From Promethearchaeota archaeon (lineage in GTDB: Archaea > Asgardarchaeota > Lokiarchaeia > Sigyniarchaeales > SOKP01): a DNA stretch of 32,000 nucleotides. The stretch lies in contig JAUWGH010000002.1 in the NCBI GenBank assembly GCA_030606485.1, positions 210,001-242,000 of the forward strand. Direction: 5' to 3'. This document shows, one piece after another, positions 5,605 to 20,016 of the stretch (its first letter is position 1; each line of letters opens with the position of its first letter). The notes under the pieces are model-generated. The model had not been told where the DNA came from. It made no database searches and saw nothing but the letters and a program-made list of their open reading frames with translations. The translations under genes and the position numbers were made by a program.

Positions 5605-7275
5605 ATGGAAAATGTTGATTATTTCTTTCAAACTTTTAATGAAGTGCTTGGAGAAGATATTTTAACTTTTTTTGGAAGATTTTATGATTATTTATCTGAT
5701 TTATTTGTAGAGGCTTATATTAAATTAGAAAATGAGATTAAAAATGATGATTTTACAACTTATAAAAAAAATATTGAAAATATTTTTGAGGTCGTTTCAT
5801 TAGGATTAAGAACAATTGGTGTTCCAAGAGATGAGATTATCTCATTTAAAAATGATTTTCTAAATTCGATTAAAGATAAATATGAAAATATTGAGAAGTA
5901 TAGTCAAATAGTAGATTTAATTTTACGACCGATTATAGAGGCTTCCCTTATTGAAATTATTATCCAATATTTTATAAGTAAAAACAAAACCCAACTTTTA
6001 AATCTCAATGTTTTCAATTTACTTCCAAGAGGATTTATAGAGAAAGTTGAGAATTTCAAAGAATCTTATGTTTCACCTACAATTACTGATTTTTTAAAAA
6101 GTGATAAAATTAAAAAGGAACCTACTCCTGTTTCAGTTGAAGTTAGGGAAATACCGGCAAGATATATTAAACCTGCAGAAAAAGCTATAATGGTTCTTTT
6201 AGAAAAACTTAAACAACAAAGAATTGATAGTGAAATCATTCTACGTAAAGAGACTCCTATCGAAAACAAAGATGAAGCCACAGAGATTTTAAATAAAATT
6301 AGCAAAATTCGAGCTGAAGATCTCTCTCTTATTGAATCAACAGAAGTTAAACAACCAATCGAGGAAATTAAAATAAAAAAAACTTTAGATATTGAAAGTG
6401 AAAAATTTATTGAATTTTTTGGTGATTTTCCTCAATTATCTTCAATTATTAGAAATAGTATAAAAATTAATATTGAAAATTTACAACAACATAATTTTAA
6501 ACAGTTTCAAGATTTAGAGACATTCTATTATTTCATATGTTCTTTAAAAATGATGGGGTTAAATTTACCTTATTCTAGAAACGAGATCGTTAATAGATTA
6601 CAAAATTTTATCTCTAATAAAGTTTTTTGTGCAGGAATTGGTTCAGCCCCTGATCCTTTAAACGTTTTTTTTGGAACTGCAATTTTTTCCGAGTTTAATT
6701 TATTATCACATGAAAGCATTGACATCGGAAAGATAAAAAAATTTATTTTTGGAGAGCTTTCTGATTTTATTCCCTGGAAATTACATCTAAATACATACTC
6801 TTTATTAACTCTTAAAATTTTAGAAAAAAATGGAGTTTCTACCCAAAAATATTCCCAATTAGAATCCAATTTATTAAAATATGATATCACAACAGCTGAA
6901 GACTATTATCCAAATATTGATTTATTTGATAAAATTCTTTCTCTTAAACTATTAAATAATTTTGGTGATTTAAGCGATATTTCTCAAGAATTTCTCAGAC
7001 AACTCAAACAAAATATTACAATAAATGGATCTATTAATGACAATCTTACTGATACTGCTAAATTTTTGTTAATGGCATCTCTATTGAATTTAAATAATGA
7101 GATAAAAGATGAAATAAATAAAATAAAAAATTACATTCTAAATGAAACAATACTCTTTCATAATCCAAAAGGTCTTAAAAAGTTAAATTGGAATCTCGAT
7201 AATCTTGGATATAAAATAGAAATTAGGATATTATACTGGGTTTTATTAGCACTCTCTCAATTCCCAAATAATTAA
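5605..7275 (+). CDS. Large hypothetical helical protein; C-terminal half resembles degenerate prenyltransferase/squalene-oxidase-type alpha-toroid repeats
   Basis: 556-aa ORF; segments DLETFYYFICSLKMMG, PDPLNVFFGTAIF, DLFDKILSLKLL, NLTDTAKFLLM repeat a DxxxTYYxxxxLxxL-like pattern. The ORF is solid; the fold call is weak. Confidence 0.6.
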   Translation: MENVDYFFQTFNEVLGEDILTFFGRFYDYLSDLFVEAYIKLENEIKNDDFTTYKKNIENIFEVVSLGLRTIGVPRDEIISFKNDFLNSIKDKYENIEKYSQIVDLILRPIIEASLIEIIIQYFISKNKTQLLNLNVFNLLPRGFIEKVENFKESYVSPTITDFLKSDKIKKEPTPVSVEVREIPARYIKPAEKAIMVLLEKLKQQRIDSEIILRKETPIENKDEATEILNKISKIRAEDLSLIESTEVKQPIEEIKIKKTLDIESEKFIEFFGDFPQLSSIIRNSIKINIENLQQHNFKQFQDLETFYYFICSLKMMGLNLPYSRNEIVNRLQNFISNKVFCAGIGSAPDPLNVFFGTAIFSEFNLLSHESIDIGKIKKFIFGELSDFIPWKLHLNTYSLLTLKILEKNGVSTQKYSQLESNLLKYDITTAEDYYPNIDLFDKILSLKLLNNFGDLSDISQEFLRQLKQNITINGSINDNLTDTAKFLLMASLLNLNNEIKDEINKIKNYILNETILFHNPKGLKKLNWNLDNLGYKIEIRILYWVLLALSQFPNN

Positions 7276-8569: not shown

Positions 8570-9409
8570 ATGGAATCAGAAACTAATAAGAAAAAAATAA
8601 AGTATCATAGTATCTTTCTTTATGCAATAAGTTTTTTTCTAATTTATTTTGTTTCATTTGGTATTCCAGGAATTATATTATGTACATTTATCAATTTTTT
8701 TTTAATTCCTAAAGTATTTAATGCTTCAAATTTTCTGGATCTTTTTACGAATCTAGACTCTCTTATTATTTTAATTTTTACTCCAATAATTATAATTGTT
8801 TGTTATTTATTACATTTATTCATAATAGCAATCAATTTAAAGATAGTTTTTTATTATACAGAAAAAAAGGAGCCTACTAGAGATGGTATAATTCCAAGAG
8901 ATTTCCCTAATAAAGCCTTAAAGTTTTATCATGTAAGATCATTTATATTAAAGTATCCGAAATGGGCTTTTTCAAAAAGTCCATTCCCTTGGCTTACCAT
9001 TAAATTATTTAATTTTATTGGTGCAAACCAGATGGGAAAAGGCACAACACTTGAAGAACAAGTTGTTGGTGATAAATTAATTAAAACGGGAAAAAATTGC
9101 TATTTTGGAGTAAATAGTGCTTTAGCTAGCCATTTAGTAGAAGGGATTTCTGGAAATGTAAATTTCTTTACTATTAAAATAGGAAATAATGTTACATTTT
9201 CAGCATTTGGAATGGCAGGTCCAGGCACGGAGATAGGTGATAACGTAGCCATGCTTCCAATTTCTGCTGCGCCAAAGCATAACCAATTGAGAAGTAATAA
9301 TTATTATTTTGGATTACCCGTAAGAAAAATATTTAAAAAAAAAATAAAAGAATGTACTGGATTAACCGAAGACCAAATCATAATCAAAAAGAAATCAAGA
9401 GATGCATAA
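8570..9409 (+). CDS. Membrane-anchored (2 TM) left-handed beta-helix acyltransferase-like protein, paralog 1 (retains His motif)
   Basis: Two N-terminal hydrophobic segments; hexapeptide repeats (MGKGTT, TGKNCYFG, IGNNVT, IGDNVA); ASHLVEG motif; terminal YFGLPVRK. Confidence 0.8.
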   Translation: MESETNKKKIKYHSIFLYAISFFLIYFVSFGIPGIILCTFINFFLIPKVFNASNFLDLFTNLDSLIILIFTPIIIIVCYLLHLFIIAINLKIVFYYTEKKEPTRDGIIPRDFPNKALKFYHVRSFILKYPKWAFSKSPFPWLTIKLFNFIGANQMGKGTTLEEQVVGDKLIKTGKNCYFGVNSALASHLVEGISGNVNFFTIKIGNNVTFSAFGMAGPGTEIGDNVAMLPISAAPKHNQLRSNNYYFGLPVRKIFKKKIKECTGLTEDQIIIKKKSRDA

Positions 9410-10280
9410 AGATATGAAAGAATCTACGGAATCTACGGAATCTACGGAATCTATGGAATTAACTATTGACGTTCTTACAGGAAGCGGAATGCCTAAGGAT
9501 GCTTTGAAATTTTTATGGCTTTATATTCCGATTATCTGGTTTGCCGGAACAATAACTTTAATACAATTCACATCCTTTTGGAAGGATTTTTTTGGTATAC
9601 CTATACTTTTTTACTTATTATTACCATTTGTGATATTTGGCGATATTTATATCTTCCTTGGTTGCTCATTGTTTTTTACTAAACTATTATTAATTTTTAT
9701 AAATCTTATTCATAAACCAAAAGAAGGAATTTTTCATATTAGAGAAGATAGAAGAGTTTATCTTTTTTGGTGTATCAGAAAATTACTAAAAAAATTTGTA
9801 ATATGGTTTGCAAGAAATACCCCTCTCCCATATGTTGATACTATAGCTTTTAGATGTTTGGGAGTGAAAGTGAATTTTTCAAATTCAATATTAGACAGCT
9901 GGTTAGATTTAGAATTTATTGAAGCTGGAAAAAAGGTTTTTATTGGACAAGGTTCAACGGTTTGTAGTGGCATCGTTGTTGGAAATTATTTAATAATAAA
10001 AAAAATAATATTTGAAGATCTCGCTATAGTTGGGGGTCAATCTGTTGTTTCTCCAGGAACAATTATCCGAAAAAACGCAATATTGGGTGCTGCATCAATT
10101 ACTAGCTTTAACCAAGAATTAGAAAAAGATTGGGTATATATGGGTATTCCAGCAAGAAAATTTAAACTAAATAAATATGCCGAAAGTAATAGAGAGATTA
10201 TTATAAAAAAGGACGTCGAATTAAAAGAGACATCTATAGTTAAATATGAAAAAATAGAAAATAAAGAAGGTGAAAAATAA
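9402..10280 (+). CDS. Membrane-anchored left-handed beta-helix acyltransferase-like protein, paralog 2
   Basis: 2 TM, PKEG..YLFW, hexapeptides (AGKKVFIGQG, VGGQSVVSPGTII), terminal VYMGIPARK; overlaps paralog 1 by 8 bp; alternative start ATG at 9453. Confidence 0.8.
   Translation: MHKDMKESTESTESTESMELTIDVLTGSGMPKDALKFLWLYIPIIWFAGTITLIQFTSFWKDFFGIPILFYLLLPFVIFGDIYIFLGCSLFFTKLLLIFINLIHKPKEGIFHIREDRRVYLFWCIRKLLKKFVIWFARNTPLPYVDTIAFRCLGVKVNFSNSILDSWLDLEFIEAGKKVFIGQGSTVCSGIVVGNYLIIKKIIFEDLAIVGGQSVVSPGTIIRKNAILGAASITSFNQELEKDWVYMGIPARKFKLNKYAESNREIIIKKDVELKETSIVKYEKIENKEGEK
9420..9460 (+). repeat. 9-bp tandem repeat (GAATCTACG)x3 + GAATCTATG + GAATT encoding ESTESTESTESME
   Basis: Read directly from 9420-9460. 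Confidence 0.95.
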
Positions 10281-10303
10281 CGGCGACTCCTATATCTTTA
10301 AAA

Positions 10304-11110
10304 ATGGCTCCTTTTACGGCAAGTGTTATAGCTAAAAAGAGATATTTTATTATATATTTTATTTTAATATGGGGGAGTTGCATTCCTCCCATTTTACAAT
10401 TTTGGTTTTTTTGGAAAATTCTAAATATTAATGAATTATTATTTTTTGCTCTTTTGCCATTAGAATTTCTTCTTTTTTATTTAATTTTAGTTTTTAGTTC
10501 AATATTTTTTGCAAAAATAATCTTAATTTATGTAAATTTATTTCATAAACCTCGAGAAGGTGTGTTCAAAAGAGATCCTAAAAATAGAGATTATTGTTAT
10601 TGGAGCCTTCGATCAATGATTATAAAATGGCCAGCATGGATAAGTCATTCATTCCCCGTTCCTTGGCATGATGTAATTTTAATGAAAGTATTTGGAGTAA
10701 AAACAAATTTTTCAAATATAACTTTTGATGGATGGGTAAATTGTGAATTTATTGAATTTGGAAGTAATATATCGGTTGGTCAAGCTGCGATAATATTATC
10801 TTCAATGATTATTGGCGATTATCTAATCATTAAAAAAGTAAAAATAGGAGACAATGTAATCATTGGCTCGCATTCAGTCATTTCACCTGGAACAATTATT
10901 GGAAAAGATTGTATCCTTTCTGCATTTTCTTATACTATGGTTGACCAAGAATTAGAAGAAGGTTGGGTTTATATAGGAGTTCCAGCAAAAAAATATAAAG
11001 AAAATAAATTTATAAAAACTGAAAAAGATTTAAAGATTAAAAAAAAATTAAAGGAATCAGAAAAATGGGATAGTTTCATCGAAAAAAGAGAGAGTATTAC
11101 TTCAAAATAA
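10304..11110 (+). CDS. Membrane-anchored left-handed beta-helix acyltransferase-like protein, paralog 3
   Basis: 2 TM, PREG..YCYW, hexapeptides (FGSNISVGQA, IGDNVIIGSHSVISPGTIIGKDCI), terminal VYIGVPAKK; 23 bp after paralog 2. Confidence 0.8.
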   Translation: MAPFTASVIAKKRYFIIYFILIWGSCIPPILQFWFFWKILNINELLFFALLPLEFLLFYLILVFSSIFFAKIILIYVNLFHKPREGVFKRDPKNRDYCYWSLRSMIIKWPAWISHSFPVPWHDVILMKVFGVKTNFSNITFDGWVNCEFIEFGSNISVGQAAIILSSMIIGDYLIIKKVKIGDNVIIGSHSVISPGTIIGKDCILSAFSYTMVDQELEEGWVYIGVPAKKYKENKFIKTEKDLKIKKKLKESEKWDSFIEKRESITSK

Positions 11111-12362: not shown

Positions 12363-13793
12363 ATGGTTGATGATCAACAAGACTTTGACAAATTTGATAC
12401 TTTATTCCATCCTAAACATATAGCTTTTATTGGAGCTTCAGAAAAATCCGCTCTCGGATCTATGCTTTTTTTGAGATCTTTTAAAAACTCTCAATGGTCA
12501 GAAACTTTTTATCCAATTAACCCAAGAAGTGAAAAAATTCTTGATTGGAAATGTTATCCCTCTGTTCTAGATGTTCCATATCCTATTGATACGGCTTATA
12601 TTTCCACAAAGATAAAATATATCCCAAAAATAATGAAGGAATGTGTTGATAAAAGAATTCCTTGGGTGATAATTTTTTCCTCTGGATTTTCTGAGACAGG
12701 AGATCCTGAGAGAAAAAAATTAGAAAGGGAAATAGTTGAGATAATTAAAAGAACTGATACAAGAGTTATCGGCCCCAATTGTTTAGGACCTTTTAATGGA
12801 GAAACGGGGATGGCTTTTACTTTTTCTACTCCATTTGGAGTTCCTGGCTCAGTTTCTTTTATGAGCCAATCTGGAGGGCACCTCACTCAATTAGTTGATG
12901 TGGGTTTCAAACGTGATTTGCGATTTCGATATGGTGTTTCATTCGGTAATCAGATAGATTTAAATTGTTTAGATTTCTTAAGGCATTTCCGTAGAGATAT
13001 TAAAACAAAAGTAATTGCTATATATTTAGAATCTTTTGGATCCGCAGATGGTCATGAATTTTATTTGGAATTAAGAAAGACAACCAAAACTAAGCCAGTT
13101 ATAATTTGGAAAGGTGGATTTACAGAAGATGGTTCTCGTGCGGCCTTTTCACATACAGGAGCTATAGCTTCAAATCAAAAATTATGGGATTCAATGGTAA
13201 AGCAAACAGGGGCAATCTTAGTAAAAAATAATGATGAATTTTGGAATATAATAAAAACTATAGAATTATTATTTTCAAATCATCTTCCTAATGGAAGAAA
13301 TGTAGGAATTATCACCCCTGGTGGTGGATTATCGGTAAATGTTACTGATTTATTTGCATTTCACAATCTAAAGGTTCCTATGTTAACACCGAGGTCTCAA
13401 GAAAAAATTGCAAATATTCTGCCAGATGTTAATGTGAATATCAAGAATCCGATAGACTTAGGGGCTTCCGGGTTTGTCGTAGATATTTTTGCAGATTGTA
13501 TAGAGATTGTAGTTGATGACCCAAATATTGATATAGTTATCGTTCCATTATGGCCAGATCATTTGTATCGACATGTTTTCAATAGAATGATTAAAATTCA
13601 AAAAAGAATTTCAAAACCATTTGCTTTTTGCCTGCCTAGCATTGCAGATTCTATTGAAATGGCAAAAAGATTTAATGGTGTTAAGAAAAAATTACATAAA
13701 AACCGTGTTCTTTACTTCTTTTCTTTAAAAGAGGCTGCAAAAAGTATTTCTTTATTTTGTGATTATTGTGATTATTTAAATTTTGGAAGATAA
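12363..13793 (+). CDS. Acyl-CoA synthetase (NDP-forming) alpha-type subunit / CoA-binding protein
   Basis: AFIGAS, IGPNCLG, SQSGG, SFGNQIDL, KGG...SHTGAIA (phospho-His), NPIDL; no ATP-grasp domain. Confidence 0.9.
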   Translation: MVDDQQDFDKFDTLFHPKHIAFIGASEKSALGSMLFLRSFKNSQWSETFYPINPRSEKILDWKCYPSVLDVPYPIDTAYISTKIKYIPKIMKECVDKRIPWVIIFSSGFSETGDPERKKLEREIVEIIKRTDTRVIGPNCLGPFNGETGMAFTFSTPFGVPGSVSFMSQSGGHLTQLVDVGFKRDLRFRYGVSFGNQIDLNCLDFLRHFRRDIKTKVIAIYLESFGSADGHEFYLELRKTTKTKPVIIWKGGFTEDGSRAAFSHTGAIASNQKLWDSMVKQTGAILVKNNDEFWNIIKTIELLFSNHLPNGRNVGIITPGGGLSVNVTDLFAFHNLKVPMLTPRSQEKIANILPDVNVNIKNPIDLGASGFVVDIFADCIEIVVDDPNIDIVIVPLWPDHLYRHVFNRMIKIQKRISKPFAFCLPSIADSIEMAKRFNGVKKKLHKNRVLYFFSLKEAAKSISLFCDYCDYLNFGR

Positions 13794-17829: not shown

Positions 17830-20016
17830 TTAAGATTTAATTGTAATTTTAATATCAACAGCGGAACATTCTTTAACAAATGATAATAGAGGATTTATAT
17901 CCAATTCTACTATCTCAGGAAAATCATTTACTAATTGAGAGAGTTTTAAAAGTACATCAATAACTGCATCGATATCTGATGGAGGTTCGCCACGAACTCC
18001 TTGGAGTAAAGCAAAAATTTTAGTCTGAGATAATAAATTAACTGCATCTTCTCTTGTAAATTTATATGTTAATGAAAATGCAACATCTTTAATGAAATTG
18101 GCATAAATACCACCTGTGCCTACCATAATCATTGGTCCGAAAGTAGGATCTTTACTCATTCCTAAAATTAACTCACTTACTTTAGGTTGAGCCTTAAAAT
18201 CTATCATTTCTTGAATTTCTATACCATAAATCTTTGCATTTCTAGGTCCAAATTTTTTTACTTTTATCATAATTTGAGTATAAGCTTCTCTAGCTTGTTT
18301 TTGGTCAAGAATATTCAATAAAACACCTCCCACATCAGTTTTATGTAAAATCTGAGGGCTTACAACTTTTGCTACTAAGGGAAAACCTATATCATTGCTT
18401 ATGTCAAAAGCTTGGATTGGAGAGCGAACTATTTTAGATTTTGGTGATGGAATTCCATAAATTTGAAATATTTCATTATTTTCATAACTTAATAATACTG
18501 AGCGATTATCTTCACGAACCTCTTCAAAAATCTCATTAACTCTATTCTTATTAACATTAAATTTCTTAATATTAATACTTTTTAAGGATTGTCTTTTCTT
18601 ATTTTCACAATACTTTACTAACACTTTTAAAGTTTGAGCAGCTCGACTTGGAAAATAATAACATGGTATATGATTGTCATTTAATAATTTTTGTCCTTCC
18701 GCTATATTTTTTCCACCAATAAAAGAACAAACCATTGGTATATCAGGAATTTTTTTTGATGTTTCAAGAACTAAGCTTGCAACATCGGTTGGTCTTGTTA
18801 ACGCTTGAGGTGCAAGAATAAGGCAACATCCATTAGGAGTCTCCTGATTTGGCATATCTTCTTTAGTGGATTTACTAATAGTATTTTTATCAAAATTGGA
18901 ATCTAATCTAAAAATAGTATTAAGTGCAAATCTATATCTTTCTGGTGTTGCATCTCCTACTATATCAACAGGATTAAATATACTTGCCTCTGCCGGTAAA
19001 TTTTTTCTCAATTTATGAAGTATATCTTCTGGAAATTTTGCAAACTTTAAACCTTCCCGTGAAAAAGCATCAGCTGCTACAATTCCAGGGCCTCCAGCAT
19101 TACTTATAATAACAAAAGAATTTTTTTTTGGTAAAGGTTGAAATGCAAAAATTTCTCCGAAATCGAATAAATCTTCAATAGTTTTTGCTCTAATTACACC
19201 TGTCTTTTCAAATGATAAATCATATGCCCTATCAGAACCTGCTAAAGCCCCTGTATGACTTGATGCTGCTTTTGCACCTTGTTCAGATATACCAGATTTC
19301 AGAATTACAACCGGTTTCTCTCTTGTAATTTCAGATACAACCTCTAAAAAACGATCTCCATCAATTACATTTTCTAAATAAGCTAGAATGACTTTTGTAT
19401 TATCATCATCAGCTAAATATTTTAAAAAATCGACAAGTGTTAAATCTGCTTTATTACCCAAGGATATGCAACAAGAAAAGCCAAAAGTACGACCCATCGA
19501 ATAATCTAACATCCCTGTAAGCATTGCACCTGATTGTGATATGATTGCTATGTTTCCTTTTTTAGGTTGATCAGCTGCAAAGGTTGCATTATAATTAAGA
19601 CCCATAAAGCCCAAACAATTAGGACCTAAGACACGAATATTATTTTCGCTACATATTTTAGCCAATTCTAACTCTCTTTCAACCCCATCTCCACCAACTT
19701 CTTTAAATCCTGCAGTAATTACGATTAATCCTTTAATTTTTTTTTGTGCGCATTCTTTTACTACATTAACAACATACTTTGCAGGAATAACAATAACGCC
19801 AATGTCAATATCTTCTTTTACATCTAAAACGCTTTTATAACATTTATATCCAAGAATTTCACTGGCTGAAGGATTAATTGGATATAATTTTCCTTTATAT
19901 CCTGAATTTTTTATATTTTTTACCACACTATTTCCAATTTTAGTTTCATTTGCGCTTGCTCCTATAACTGCAATACTATCAGGATTAAAAAAATAACCTA
20001 AATCACTTTCCGCCAT
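17830..20016 (-). CDS. Acetate/acyl-CoA ligase (ADP-forming), fused alpha-beta
   Basis: AVIGAS, LGPNCLG, SQSGA, SLGNKAD, SHTGALAG, SNAGGPG, NPVD, then ATP-grasp (KVVSPQILHKTDVGGV, DPTFGPMIMVGTGG, ELDINPL). Confidence 0.93.
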   Translation of the reverse strand: MAESDLGYFFNPDSIAVIGASANETKIGNSVVKNIKNSGYKGKLYPINPSASEILGYKCYKSVLDVKEDIDIGVIVIPAKYVVNVVKECAQKKIKGLIVITAGFKEVGGDGVERELELAKICSENNIRVLGPNCLGFMGLNYNATFAADQPKKGNIAIISQSGAMLTGMLDYSMGRTFGFSCCISLGNKADLTLVDFLKYLADDDNTKVILAYLENVIDGDRFLEVVSEITREKPVVILKSGISEQGAKAASSHTGALAGSDRAYDLSFEKTGVIRAKTIEDLFDFGEIFAFQPLPKKNSFVIISNAGGPGIVAADAFSREGLKFAKFPEDILHKLRKNLPAEASIFNPVDIVGDATPERYRFALNTIFRLDSNFDKNTISKSTKEDMPNQETPNGCCLILAPQALTRPTDVASLVLETSKKIPDIPMVCSFIGGKNIAEGQKLLNDNHIPCYYFPSRAAQTLKVLVKYCENKKRQSLKSINIKKFNVNKNRVNEIFEEVREDNRSVLLSYENNEIFQIYGIPSPKSKIVRSPIQAFDISNDIGFPLVAKVVSPQILHKTDVGGVLLNILDQKQAREAYTQIMIKVKKFGPRNAKIYGIEIQEMIDFKAQPKVSELILGMSKDPTFGPMIMVGTGGIYANFIKDVAFSLTYKFTREDAVNLLSQTKIFALLQGVRGEPPSDIDAVIDVLLKLSQLVNDFPEIVELDINPLLSFVKECSAVDIKITIKS

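Follow-up and report, generated by a model that had tools for sequence, protein, structure and literature searches.

A conserved three-gene unit of Asgard archaea that resembles a split membrane domain of Pls-type synthetases and may form a heterotrimeric membrane acyltransferase

Introduction

What kind of enzyme is encoded by three adjacent paralogous genes when each product joins a membrane hairpin to a left-handed beta-helix and only the first carries a histidine in the beta-helix loop? The question is raised by positions 8570-11110 of a 32,000-nucleotide stretch of DNA (the window; positions 210,001 to 242,000 of contig JAUWGH010000002.1, GenBank assembly GCA_030606485.1) from a Promethearchaeota archaeon, where three genes, here called A, B and C, closely follow one another. 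An initial annotation, made from the sequence alone, likened them to the C-terminal membrane domain (TIGR02353) that epsilon-poly-L-lysine synthetase (Pls) contains and proposed a 1:1:1 membrane heterotrimer with a single active site. The analysis described here leads to a related answer. With a probability of about 0.65, A, B and C form an A:B:C membrane heterotrimer with one active site centred on His188 of A, that is, a split and carrier-less variant of the Pls-type architecture of transmembrane helices and left-handed beta-helices, which probably uses a coenzyme A (CoA) thioester.

The C-terminal membrane domain of Pls and of PosA, the delta-poly-L-ornithine synthetase, is the least understood part of these enzymes. 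No experimental structure of it was found, and the only model is that of PMC10522769. Searches of the literature on TIGR02353, a Pls cryo-EM structure and mutagenesis of the Pls C-domain retrieved no account of such a domain in archaea or in split form; no map of Pls catalytic residues was found in the openly accessible literature, and no published description of the Asgard A/B/C unit was found. In Asgard archaea, the Pls-type module is free-standing and naturally split, and it is present in all genomes of one family, usually in several copies. It represents an abundant, uncharacterised family of membrane enzymes within the archaeal lineage that is closest to eukaryotes. If the units act as Pls-type polymerases, their natural division over separate genes would allow the little-understood mechanism of Pls polymerisation to be studied one subunit at a time. 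Three small genes with one candidate catalytic His provide a tractable system for studying the coupling of acyl transfer to the membrane. New in this work are the rule of one His in three repeats over 119 Pls/PosA proteins, the phyletic mismatch between the unit and carrier proteins, and a tree of units that speaks against orthology of the individual subunits.

Three paralogous genes and their products

Genes A, B and C are co-directional; A and B overlap by 8 nt, and a gap of 23 nt separates B from C. Their positions in the window are as follows:

8570-9409, forward strand: subunit A, open reading frame (ORF) of 279 amino acids (aa); transmembrane hairpin, two helices and left-handed beta-helix; the sole His-bearing and presumably catalytic subunit
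9131-9133, forward strand: codon of His188 of A, in the motif S-H-L-V-E-G; candidate general base
9402-10280, forward strand: subunit B, ORF of 292 aa; fold as in A; without His at the catalytic column
10304-11110, forward strand: subunit C, ORF of 268 aa; fold as in A; without His at the catalytic column

The three proteins are paralogous, with about 41% identity between B and C and 22-28% identity of A to either of them. Positions that are invariant in all three include those of the terminal motif Y246-x-G248-x-P250-x-x-K253. The loop of the beta-helix reads ASHLVEG in A, where it contains His188, but CSGIVVG in B and LSSMIIG in C. After the second transmembrane helix, B carries an HKPKEG motif and C an HKPREG motif.

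The AlphaFold2 model of A, built from a 61-row alignment (pLDDT 87.3, pTM 0.80), consists of the hydrophobic hairpin helices 15-50 and 62-100, a strand at residues 106-108, two more helices (115-135 and 142-150) and, from about 160 to 250, a beta-helix. In the modelled C-terminal domain of PosA, each repeat has an order of elements matching that of the A model (PMC10522769). Positive charges flanking the hairpin suggest that the beta-helices of the A/B/C units are located in the cytoplasm. Foldseek against the PDB matched the A model to MAT, LacA, VCA0836, AntD and SAT at a probability of 1.0. In Pfam, C reaches 34 bits with the Hexapep family, which is over the cutoff of 27, and A and B stay under it. 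Thus, the ORF coordinates, the alignments and the model of A confirm every element of the gene layout, the paralogy, the motifs and the His188 codon that had been read from the sequence initially.

A conserved unit with a fixed gene order

The source genome (3.75 Mb, 13 contigs, about 29% G+C) carries five loci of the A/B/C family. In addition to the genes in the window, contig 2 contains a second triplet, A'-B'-C', with unchanged order and 59-64% identity. On contig 10, one locus comprises a B/C-like gene preceded by a 535-aa C-A fusion, and another consists only of a divergent B/C-like gene pair (170100-171670). A solo A-like gene, about 35% identical to A, stands unlinked on contig 12 (69446-70270). 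The gene pair of contig 10 and the solo gene of contig 12 might form a fourth, dispersed set.

To survey the phyletic distribution, 300 genomes sampled from the phylum were searched for B-like genes. Such genes occur in all 68 genomes of the taxonomic family and in all seven further genomes of the order, most of which yield at least eight matches per genome; matches in the rest of the phylum are mostly weak (E about 1e-11 to 1e-14). The named homologs all come from Promethearchaeota or Lokiarchaeota genomes, where they are annotated as hypothetical. Without exception, 37 loci drawn from over 25 genomes show the order A-B-C, whether three separate genes are present or C follows an A-B fusion (576-639 aa). 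Further fusions include about 20 C-A proteins (about 485-541 aa) in a large protein collection and the C-A-B triple fusions P0121 (N-terminally truncated) and P0151 (797 aa), both from Promethearchaeota metagenome-assembled genomes. Every fusion type is compatible with the single cyclic order A-B-C-A, as expected if the chains formed a ring that brings the C-terminus of each close to the N-terminus of the next. In some genomes, arrays of two or three A-B fusions are followed by a single C (L043, L044 and L045; for example, L044:8484-15738), which suggests that alternative catalytic modules share one C subunit.

A-B-C is therefore a conserved unit and not a recent duplication. The expectation that the triplet would be conserved across Asgard genomes is borne out by its presence throughout the family and by its invariable order. 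Simple recent duplication, named at the outset as an observation that would count against a heterotrimer, does not fit a unit that is conserved, keeps its order and undergoes in-frame fusion.

A single histidine among three subunits

His188 is invariant among A-type proteins: it is found in 121 of 121 orthologs, down to 43% identity, and in 43 of 43 members of a second A-type set. Other residues invariant in the 121 orthologs are G106, R110, Y129, E162, E163, G180, G192, G195, G219, P230, K236, G248 and P250. In pairwise alignment, His188 coincides with the H-P-x-H region that contains the catalytic His of maltose O-acetyltransferase. The same column never contains His in B (Ser in 36 and Gly in 4 of 40 proteins) or in C (Ser in 19, Ala in 12 and Val in 1 of 32). 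The single-His pattern predicted for the unit is thus conserved across Asgard genomes. Mean column identity is 53% in A, 59% in B (40 orthologs) and 63% in C (31 orthologs). Since B and C are conserved at least as well as A, they appear to be kept as non-catalytic partners and not to be decaying.

The fold and the aligned catalytic His connect A with the soluble hexapeptide acyltransferases, such as maltose and galactoside O-acetyltransferases, VCA0836, AntD, PglD/NeuD and YvoF (a heptaprenylglyceryl-phosphate O-acetyltransferase, NF058585), which use acyl-CoA. Unlike A, however, these enzymes possess neither a membrane hairpin nor a helical linker, and they function as homotrimers with three active sites.

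Relation to the membrane domain of Pls and PosA

TIGR02353 is the best NCBIfam match of each of the three proteins (A, 25.2 bits; B, 31.6 bits; C, 48.1 bits), and the natural Asgard triple fusions reach 83.8 bits (P0121) and 54.3 bits (P0151). When the A model was used in a shape search of the ESM Atlas, the first non-Asgard matches were clusters of Pls/PosA nonribosomal peptide synthetases (PP-binding and Hexapep), which cover residues 1-263 of A, hairpin included, with TM scores of 0.63-0.68, whereas soluble left-handed beta-helix acetyltransferases cover only residues 98-276 with a TM score of 0.47. About 500 residues of the triple-fusion model (pLDDT 78.8, pTM 0.77) can be superposed on Pls/PosA models at a TM score of about 0.5. 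Outside Asgard archaea, Pls/PosA synthetases are the only whole-unit fold matches. Moreover, an exhaustive search with a hidden Markov model (HMM) of mixed A, B and C units found 145 representatives at E≤1e-30 and retrieved the true Pls-type proteins P0281 (1713 aa, with an adenylation domain and a TIGR02353 score of 471 bits) at E=5e-33 and P0286 (764 aa, TIGR02353 score of 580 bits) at E=7e-32. The best NCBIfam match, the whole-unit fold matches and this retrieval together uphold the proposed similarity to the terminal domain of Pls. A PDB sequence search and Foldseek against the PDB returned no solved Pls-type membrane domain, only soluble left-handed beta-helix enzymes and gamma-carbonic anhydrases, and tblastn of C against plasmids gave three weak left-handed beta-helix matches and no Pls.

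The distribution of the catalytic signature is the second element of this relation. In a single-repeat alignment of true Pls/PosA proteins, His is found in repeat 3 (C3) only, within Q-T-H-L-F-E-D-R. Among 120 proteins, repeat 3 has His in 119 of 119 (with one gap), Glu in 115, and Asp, Arg and a downstream Lys in 119 each, and repeats 1 and 2 never contain His. The THLFEDR motif, which the initial annotation had named, is thus real and restricted to one of the three repeats, and its restriction indicates that members of the fold class generally have one catalytic unit out of three. In particular, A shares with Pls repeat 3 the H-x-x-E motif (H188 and E191), an acidic residue at position 162, and K236; the D-R positions of the Pls motif read G-I in Asgard A.

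Three tandem units of transmembrane hairpin and left-handed beta-helix are present in Asgard archaea at the level of the operon and in the natural fusions. The C1-C2-C3 polymerisation domain of Pls and PosA likewise consists of three repeats of a transmembrane hairpin, two helices and a left-handed beta-helix, and one unit of its three bears the H-x-x-E His and the downstream Lys. In contrast to Pls and PosA, the Asgard form is divided over three genes (or two, by fusion) and contains no adenylation or carrier domain. The His-bearing unit comes first in the Asgard gene order but last in Pls/PosA, and the D-R pair is present in repeat 3 of Pls/PosA but absent from A. A third version of this arrangement exists in bacterial stand-alone three-unit proteins (for example, P0237, P0229 and P0287 from Elusimicrobiota), which, like the Asgard form, have no adenylation or carrier domains and a single His-bearing unit. 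Unlike the Asgard form, they are single chains with the His in unit 2, belong to a separate clade, and do not have the acidic residue and Lys that A shares with Pls. One catalytic unit accompanied by two degenerate units is therefore seen in all examined Pls/PosA proteins as well as in the Asgard complexes and the bacterial stand-alone proteins.

A maximum likelihood tree of the units (186 columns, LG+G4, 1000 ultrafast bootstraps) contains clades of A (support 100), B (90), C (96), B+C (100) and A+B+C (97). Outside Asgard archaea, the three Pls repeats group together (97), as do the units of the bacterial stand-alone proteins (100). This separation may reflect an independent triplication with loss of two active sites in each lineage, or a lineage-specific composition that attracts the sequences to one another. 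By HMM score, A, B and C cannot be paired one-to-one with C1, C2 and C3 in a consistent way. One-to-one orthology of A with Pls repeat C3 was considered and rejected on account of these scores and of the tree, which contradicts it; the resemblance of the motifs remains. The relation between A/B/C and Pls is one of shared unit architecture and catalytic signature, not of subunit orthology. Hence, the proposed equivalence to the Pls condensation module applies to the architecture and not to descent. Similarly, the HMM comparison that had been recommended places TIGR02353 at the top for A, B and C, but neither the single ORFs nor the natural fusions reach the curated cutoff of 423.1 bits; because of these scores, the absence of an adenylation or carrier domain and the separation in the tree, membership of A, B and C in TIGR02353 was rejected.

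Two further observations concern this family. At L048:3522-7506, the true TIGR02353 domain of P0286 forms a 764-aa ORF of its own that overlaps the preceding 576-aa adenylation-carrier gene by 41 nt; either this Pls-type synthetase is naturally split or the assembly contains a frameshift. In the atlas search with the triple fusion, a Streptophyta cluster of proteins of about 796 aa with a catalase domain and hexapeptide repeats was also matched (TM score 0.42).

Carrier proteins and the probable acyl donor

Among the enzymes encoded by the source genome are 18 AMP-binding enzymes and a single carrier protein (79 aa). The carrier gene is translationally coupled to a gene for a 506-aa AMP-binding enzyme and adjoins a gene for a weak Sfp-like phosphopantetheinyl transferase (PPTase) (contig 10, about 516-519 kb; L047:8158-10941). 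These three genes lie within a nonulosonic-acid cluster comprising NeuB, two cytidylyltransferases, an aminotransferase and a GNAT protein, which is unlinked to any of the five A/B/C loci. The cluster probably serves the aminoacyl or acyl decoration of nonulosonic acid, which would be unusual for an archaeon.

No adenylation or carrier gene is fused or adjacent to the unit in the window or at the paralogous loci of the source genome, which agrees with the original reading of the window. Carriers of the PF00550 family are found in 8 of the 68 family genomes but not in the remaining three genomes of the genus, whereas the unit is present in all 68. A general mechanism therefore cannot depend on a carrier-bound donor, and supply from an unlinked adenylation-carrier enzyme, one of the two sources suggested initially, is unlikely in general; the sole such pair of the source genome belongs to a sugar cluster. 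Because most unit-bearing genomes lack any carrier, acyl-CoA is favoured, and the donor is probably a CoA thioester. Acyl-CoA is available in the cytoplasm, the side on which the charges around the hairpin place the beta-helices.

Proposed assembly and activity

We infer from these data that A, B and C are three ancient paralogous subunits, in each of which a membrane hairpin and two short helices precede a left-handed beta-helix located in the cytoplasm. They would assemble 1:1:1 in the cyclic order A-B-C into a membrane-embedded pseudo-threefold ring. The ring would consist of six transmembrane helices under a bundle of three beta-helices, as in the C1-C2-C3 architecture of Pls/PosA. Because only A retains the catalytic His, there would be one active site per ring, formed by His188 together with E191 and K236 at the interface between A and a neighbouring subunit, with B and C as conserved non-catalytic partners. 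The acyl group would be passed from a cytoplasmic thioester, probably acyl-CoA, to an acceptor that is exported or close to the membrane. The invariable order of the genes and the A-B, C-A and C-A-B fusions strongly suggest a 1:1:1 hetero-assembly, and this part of the heterotrimer proposed earlier gains support. Prediction of the A+B+C complex, with a separate alignment for each chain and C as the scored partner, gave 0.84, compared with 0.83 in a control in which an unrelated protein replaced B, and thus did not discriminate.

Several observations weigh against this explanation. The TIGR02353 scores of the Asgard units and fusions are far under the cutoff of the family, and in the tree the A+B+C clade (97) stands apart from that of the three Pls repeats (97); as the tree sets the Asgard units apart, the mechanism can be transferred from Pls by analogy only. 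Arrays with several A-B fusions per C are at odds with a plain 1:1:1 gene dosage. In HKP(K/R)EG, B and C contain a conserved His of their own, which is absent from the Pls repeats. Moreover, no conserved neighbour points to a substrate.

Alternative explanations

A broader proposal, which we regard as rather unlikely, is that Asgard genomes encode several paralogous, carrier-independent Pls-type polymerases with exchangeable A-B modules and a common C, which would either make and export polymers (polyamides or acylated ones) or act on lipids or glycans of the envelope. If true, it would reveal a varied surface chemistry of Asgard archaea that has not been described before.

It is unlikely that the ring is a true Pls-like polymerase, which would condense aminoacyl or acyl units into an isopeptide or polyamide chain extruded through the six-helix bundle, with activated monomers delivered in trans by an adenylation/carrier pair or coming from a different aminoacyl donor. 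The architecture of the unit equals that of the only characterised members of this fold class, and A has in common with Pls repeat 3 the H-x-x-E motif, the acidic residue at 162 and K236, whereas bacterial stand-alone relatives found in a sugar context have neither this acidic residue nor the Lys. One stand-alone carrier, one adenylation enzyme and one PPTase-like gene are indeed available in the source genome, a true TIGR02353 domain can sit in a gene separate from the adenylation-carrier gene, and in one genus a carbon-nitrogen hydrolase gene follows C. However, carriers are missing from most unit-bearing family genomes and from the other genomes of the genus, the adenylation-carrier pair of the source genome is located in a NeuB/CMP-sugar cluster unlinked to the five loci, A does not retain the D-R of the Pls motif, and Asgard units and Pls repeats fall into different clades of the tree.

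Classical left-handed beta-helix acyltransferases are homotrimers, and it might be asked whether A, B and C are independent membrane-anchored acetyltransferases, each a homotrimer, that became adjacent through duplication and of which only A is active. The two-gene locus and the solo A-like gene of the source genome would agree with such independence, as would the arrays with several A-B genes per C. This explanation is nevertheless quite improbable: the order of the genes is fixed in 37 loci and a single cyclic order is common to the in-frame fusions, B and C are conserved at least as well as A although neither has the catalytic His, and the single-chain Pls proteins provide a precedent for one His in three repeats. 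The membrane-attached CA/CAL module of complex I is a left-handed beta-helix heterotrimer whose active-site residues are not kept in all subunits. Unlike A/B/C, it has a three-His zinc site and no such transmembrane hairpin, and it serves as an analogy for subunit degeneration only. A role other than acyl transfer, such as a channel, a scaffold or a membrane-attached module resembling gamma-carbonic anhydrases, is very improbable, for although gamma-carbonic anhydrases, including the heterotrimeric CA/CAL module, are among the sequence and fold matches, A lacks their three-His zinc site, its single invariant His aligns with the catalytic position of acyltransferases and Pls, and the best profile matches are acyltransferases. 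The heterotrimeric acyltransferase thus remains the favoured explanation.

Gene neighbourhood

The neighbourhoods of the units and of their bacterial relatives give only hints on function. The following genes near the A/B/C unit were considered:

5605-7275, forward strand: 556-aa ORF; no Pfam match; a singleton with no paralog in the source genome
7300-7905, reverse strand: CxxCxxCC gene (PF03692, YkgJ-type), divergent from the unit; Pfam E=4e-13; possible accessory factor
12363-13793, forward strand: NDP-forming acyl-CoA-synthetase alpha-type gene; CoA_binding and Succ_CoA_lig, without an ATP-grasp domain
17830-20016: NDP-forming acetyl-CoA-synthetase-type gene, complete
L043:5560-6399 and L045:4810-5628; L043:12737-13537, L044:4078-4872 and L045:3990-4778: carbon-nitrogen hydrolase and heliorhodopsin genes in other Asgard genomes

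A search for a conserved acid-activating neighbour of the unit found none at the loci of the source genome. The two acyl-CoA synthetases that had been noted within 9 kb are present as NDP-forming acetyl-CoA-synthetase-type genes, but they are not conserved neighbours: the source genome has about 13 NDP-forming acyl-CoA-synthetase paralogs, none of which lies at the other A/B/C loci. The 556-aa ORF was rejected as a conserved activating neighbour, being unrelated to a 550-aa ORF without Pfam match beside the units in L045. A scan for sigma-70 promoters and terminators gave nothing over shuffled background; the sigma-70 model is not applicable to archaea.

The CxxCxxCC gene is not found at the other four A/B/C loci of the source genome. 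In other genomes, it adjoins the A-B/C unit at 14 loci, where it is usually divergent and just upstream (for example, L043:17466-17879, L044:12351-12746 and L045:14431-14826). In one related Asgard genus, the carbon-nitrogen hydrolase gene (PF00795) directly follows C and the heliorhodopsin gene adjoins the triplet; a sugar epimerase/dehydratase is encoded near the A-B fusion arrays of the same genus. Among the bacterial stand-alone relatives, which are unannotated, P0268 is fused to a short-chain dehydrogenase (SDR), and P0237 is encoded in a dTDP-sugar/GT1/GMC-oxidoreductase operon (L049:6001-14043, bacterial genome GCA_964572155.1).

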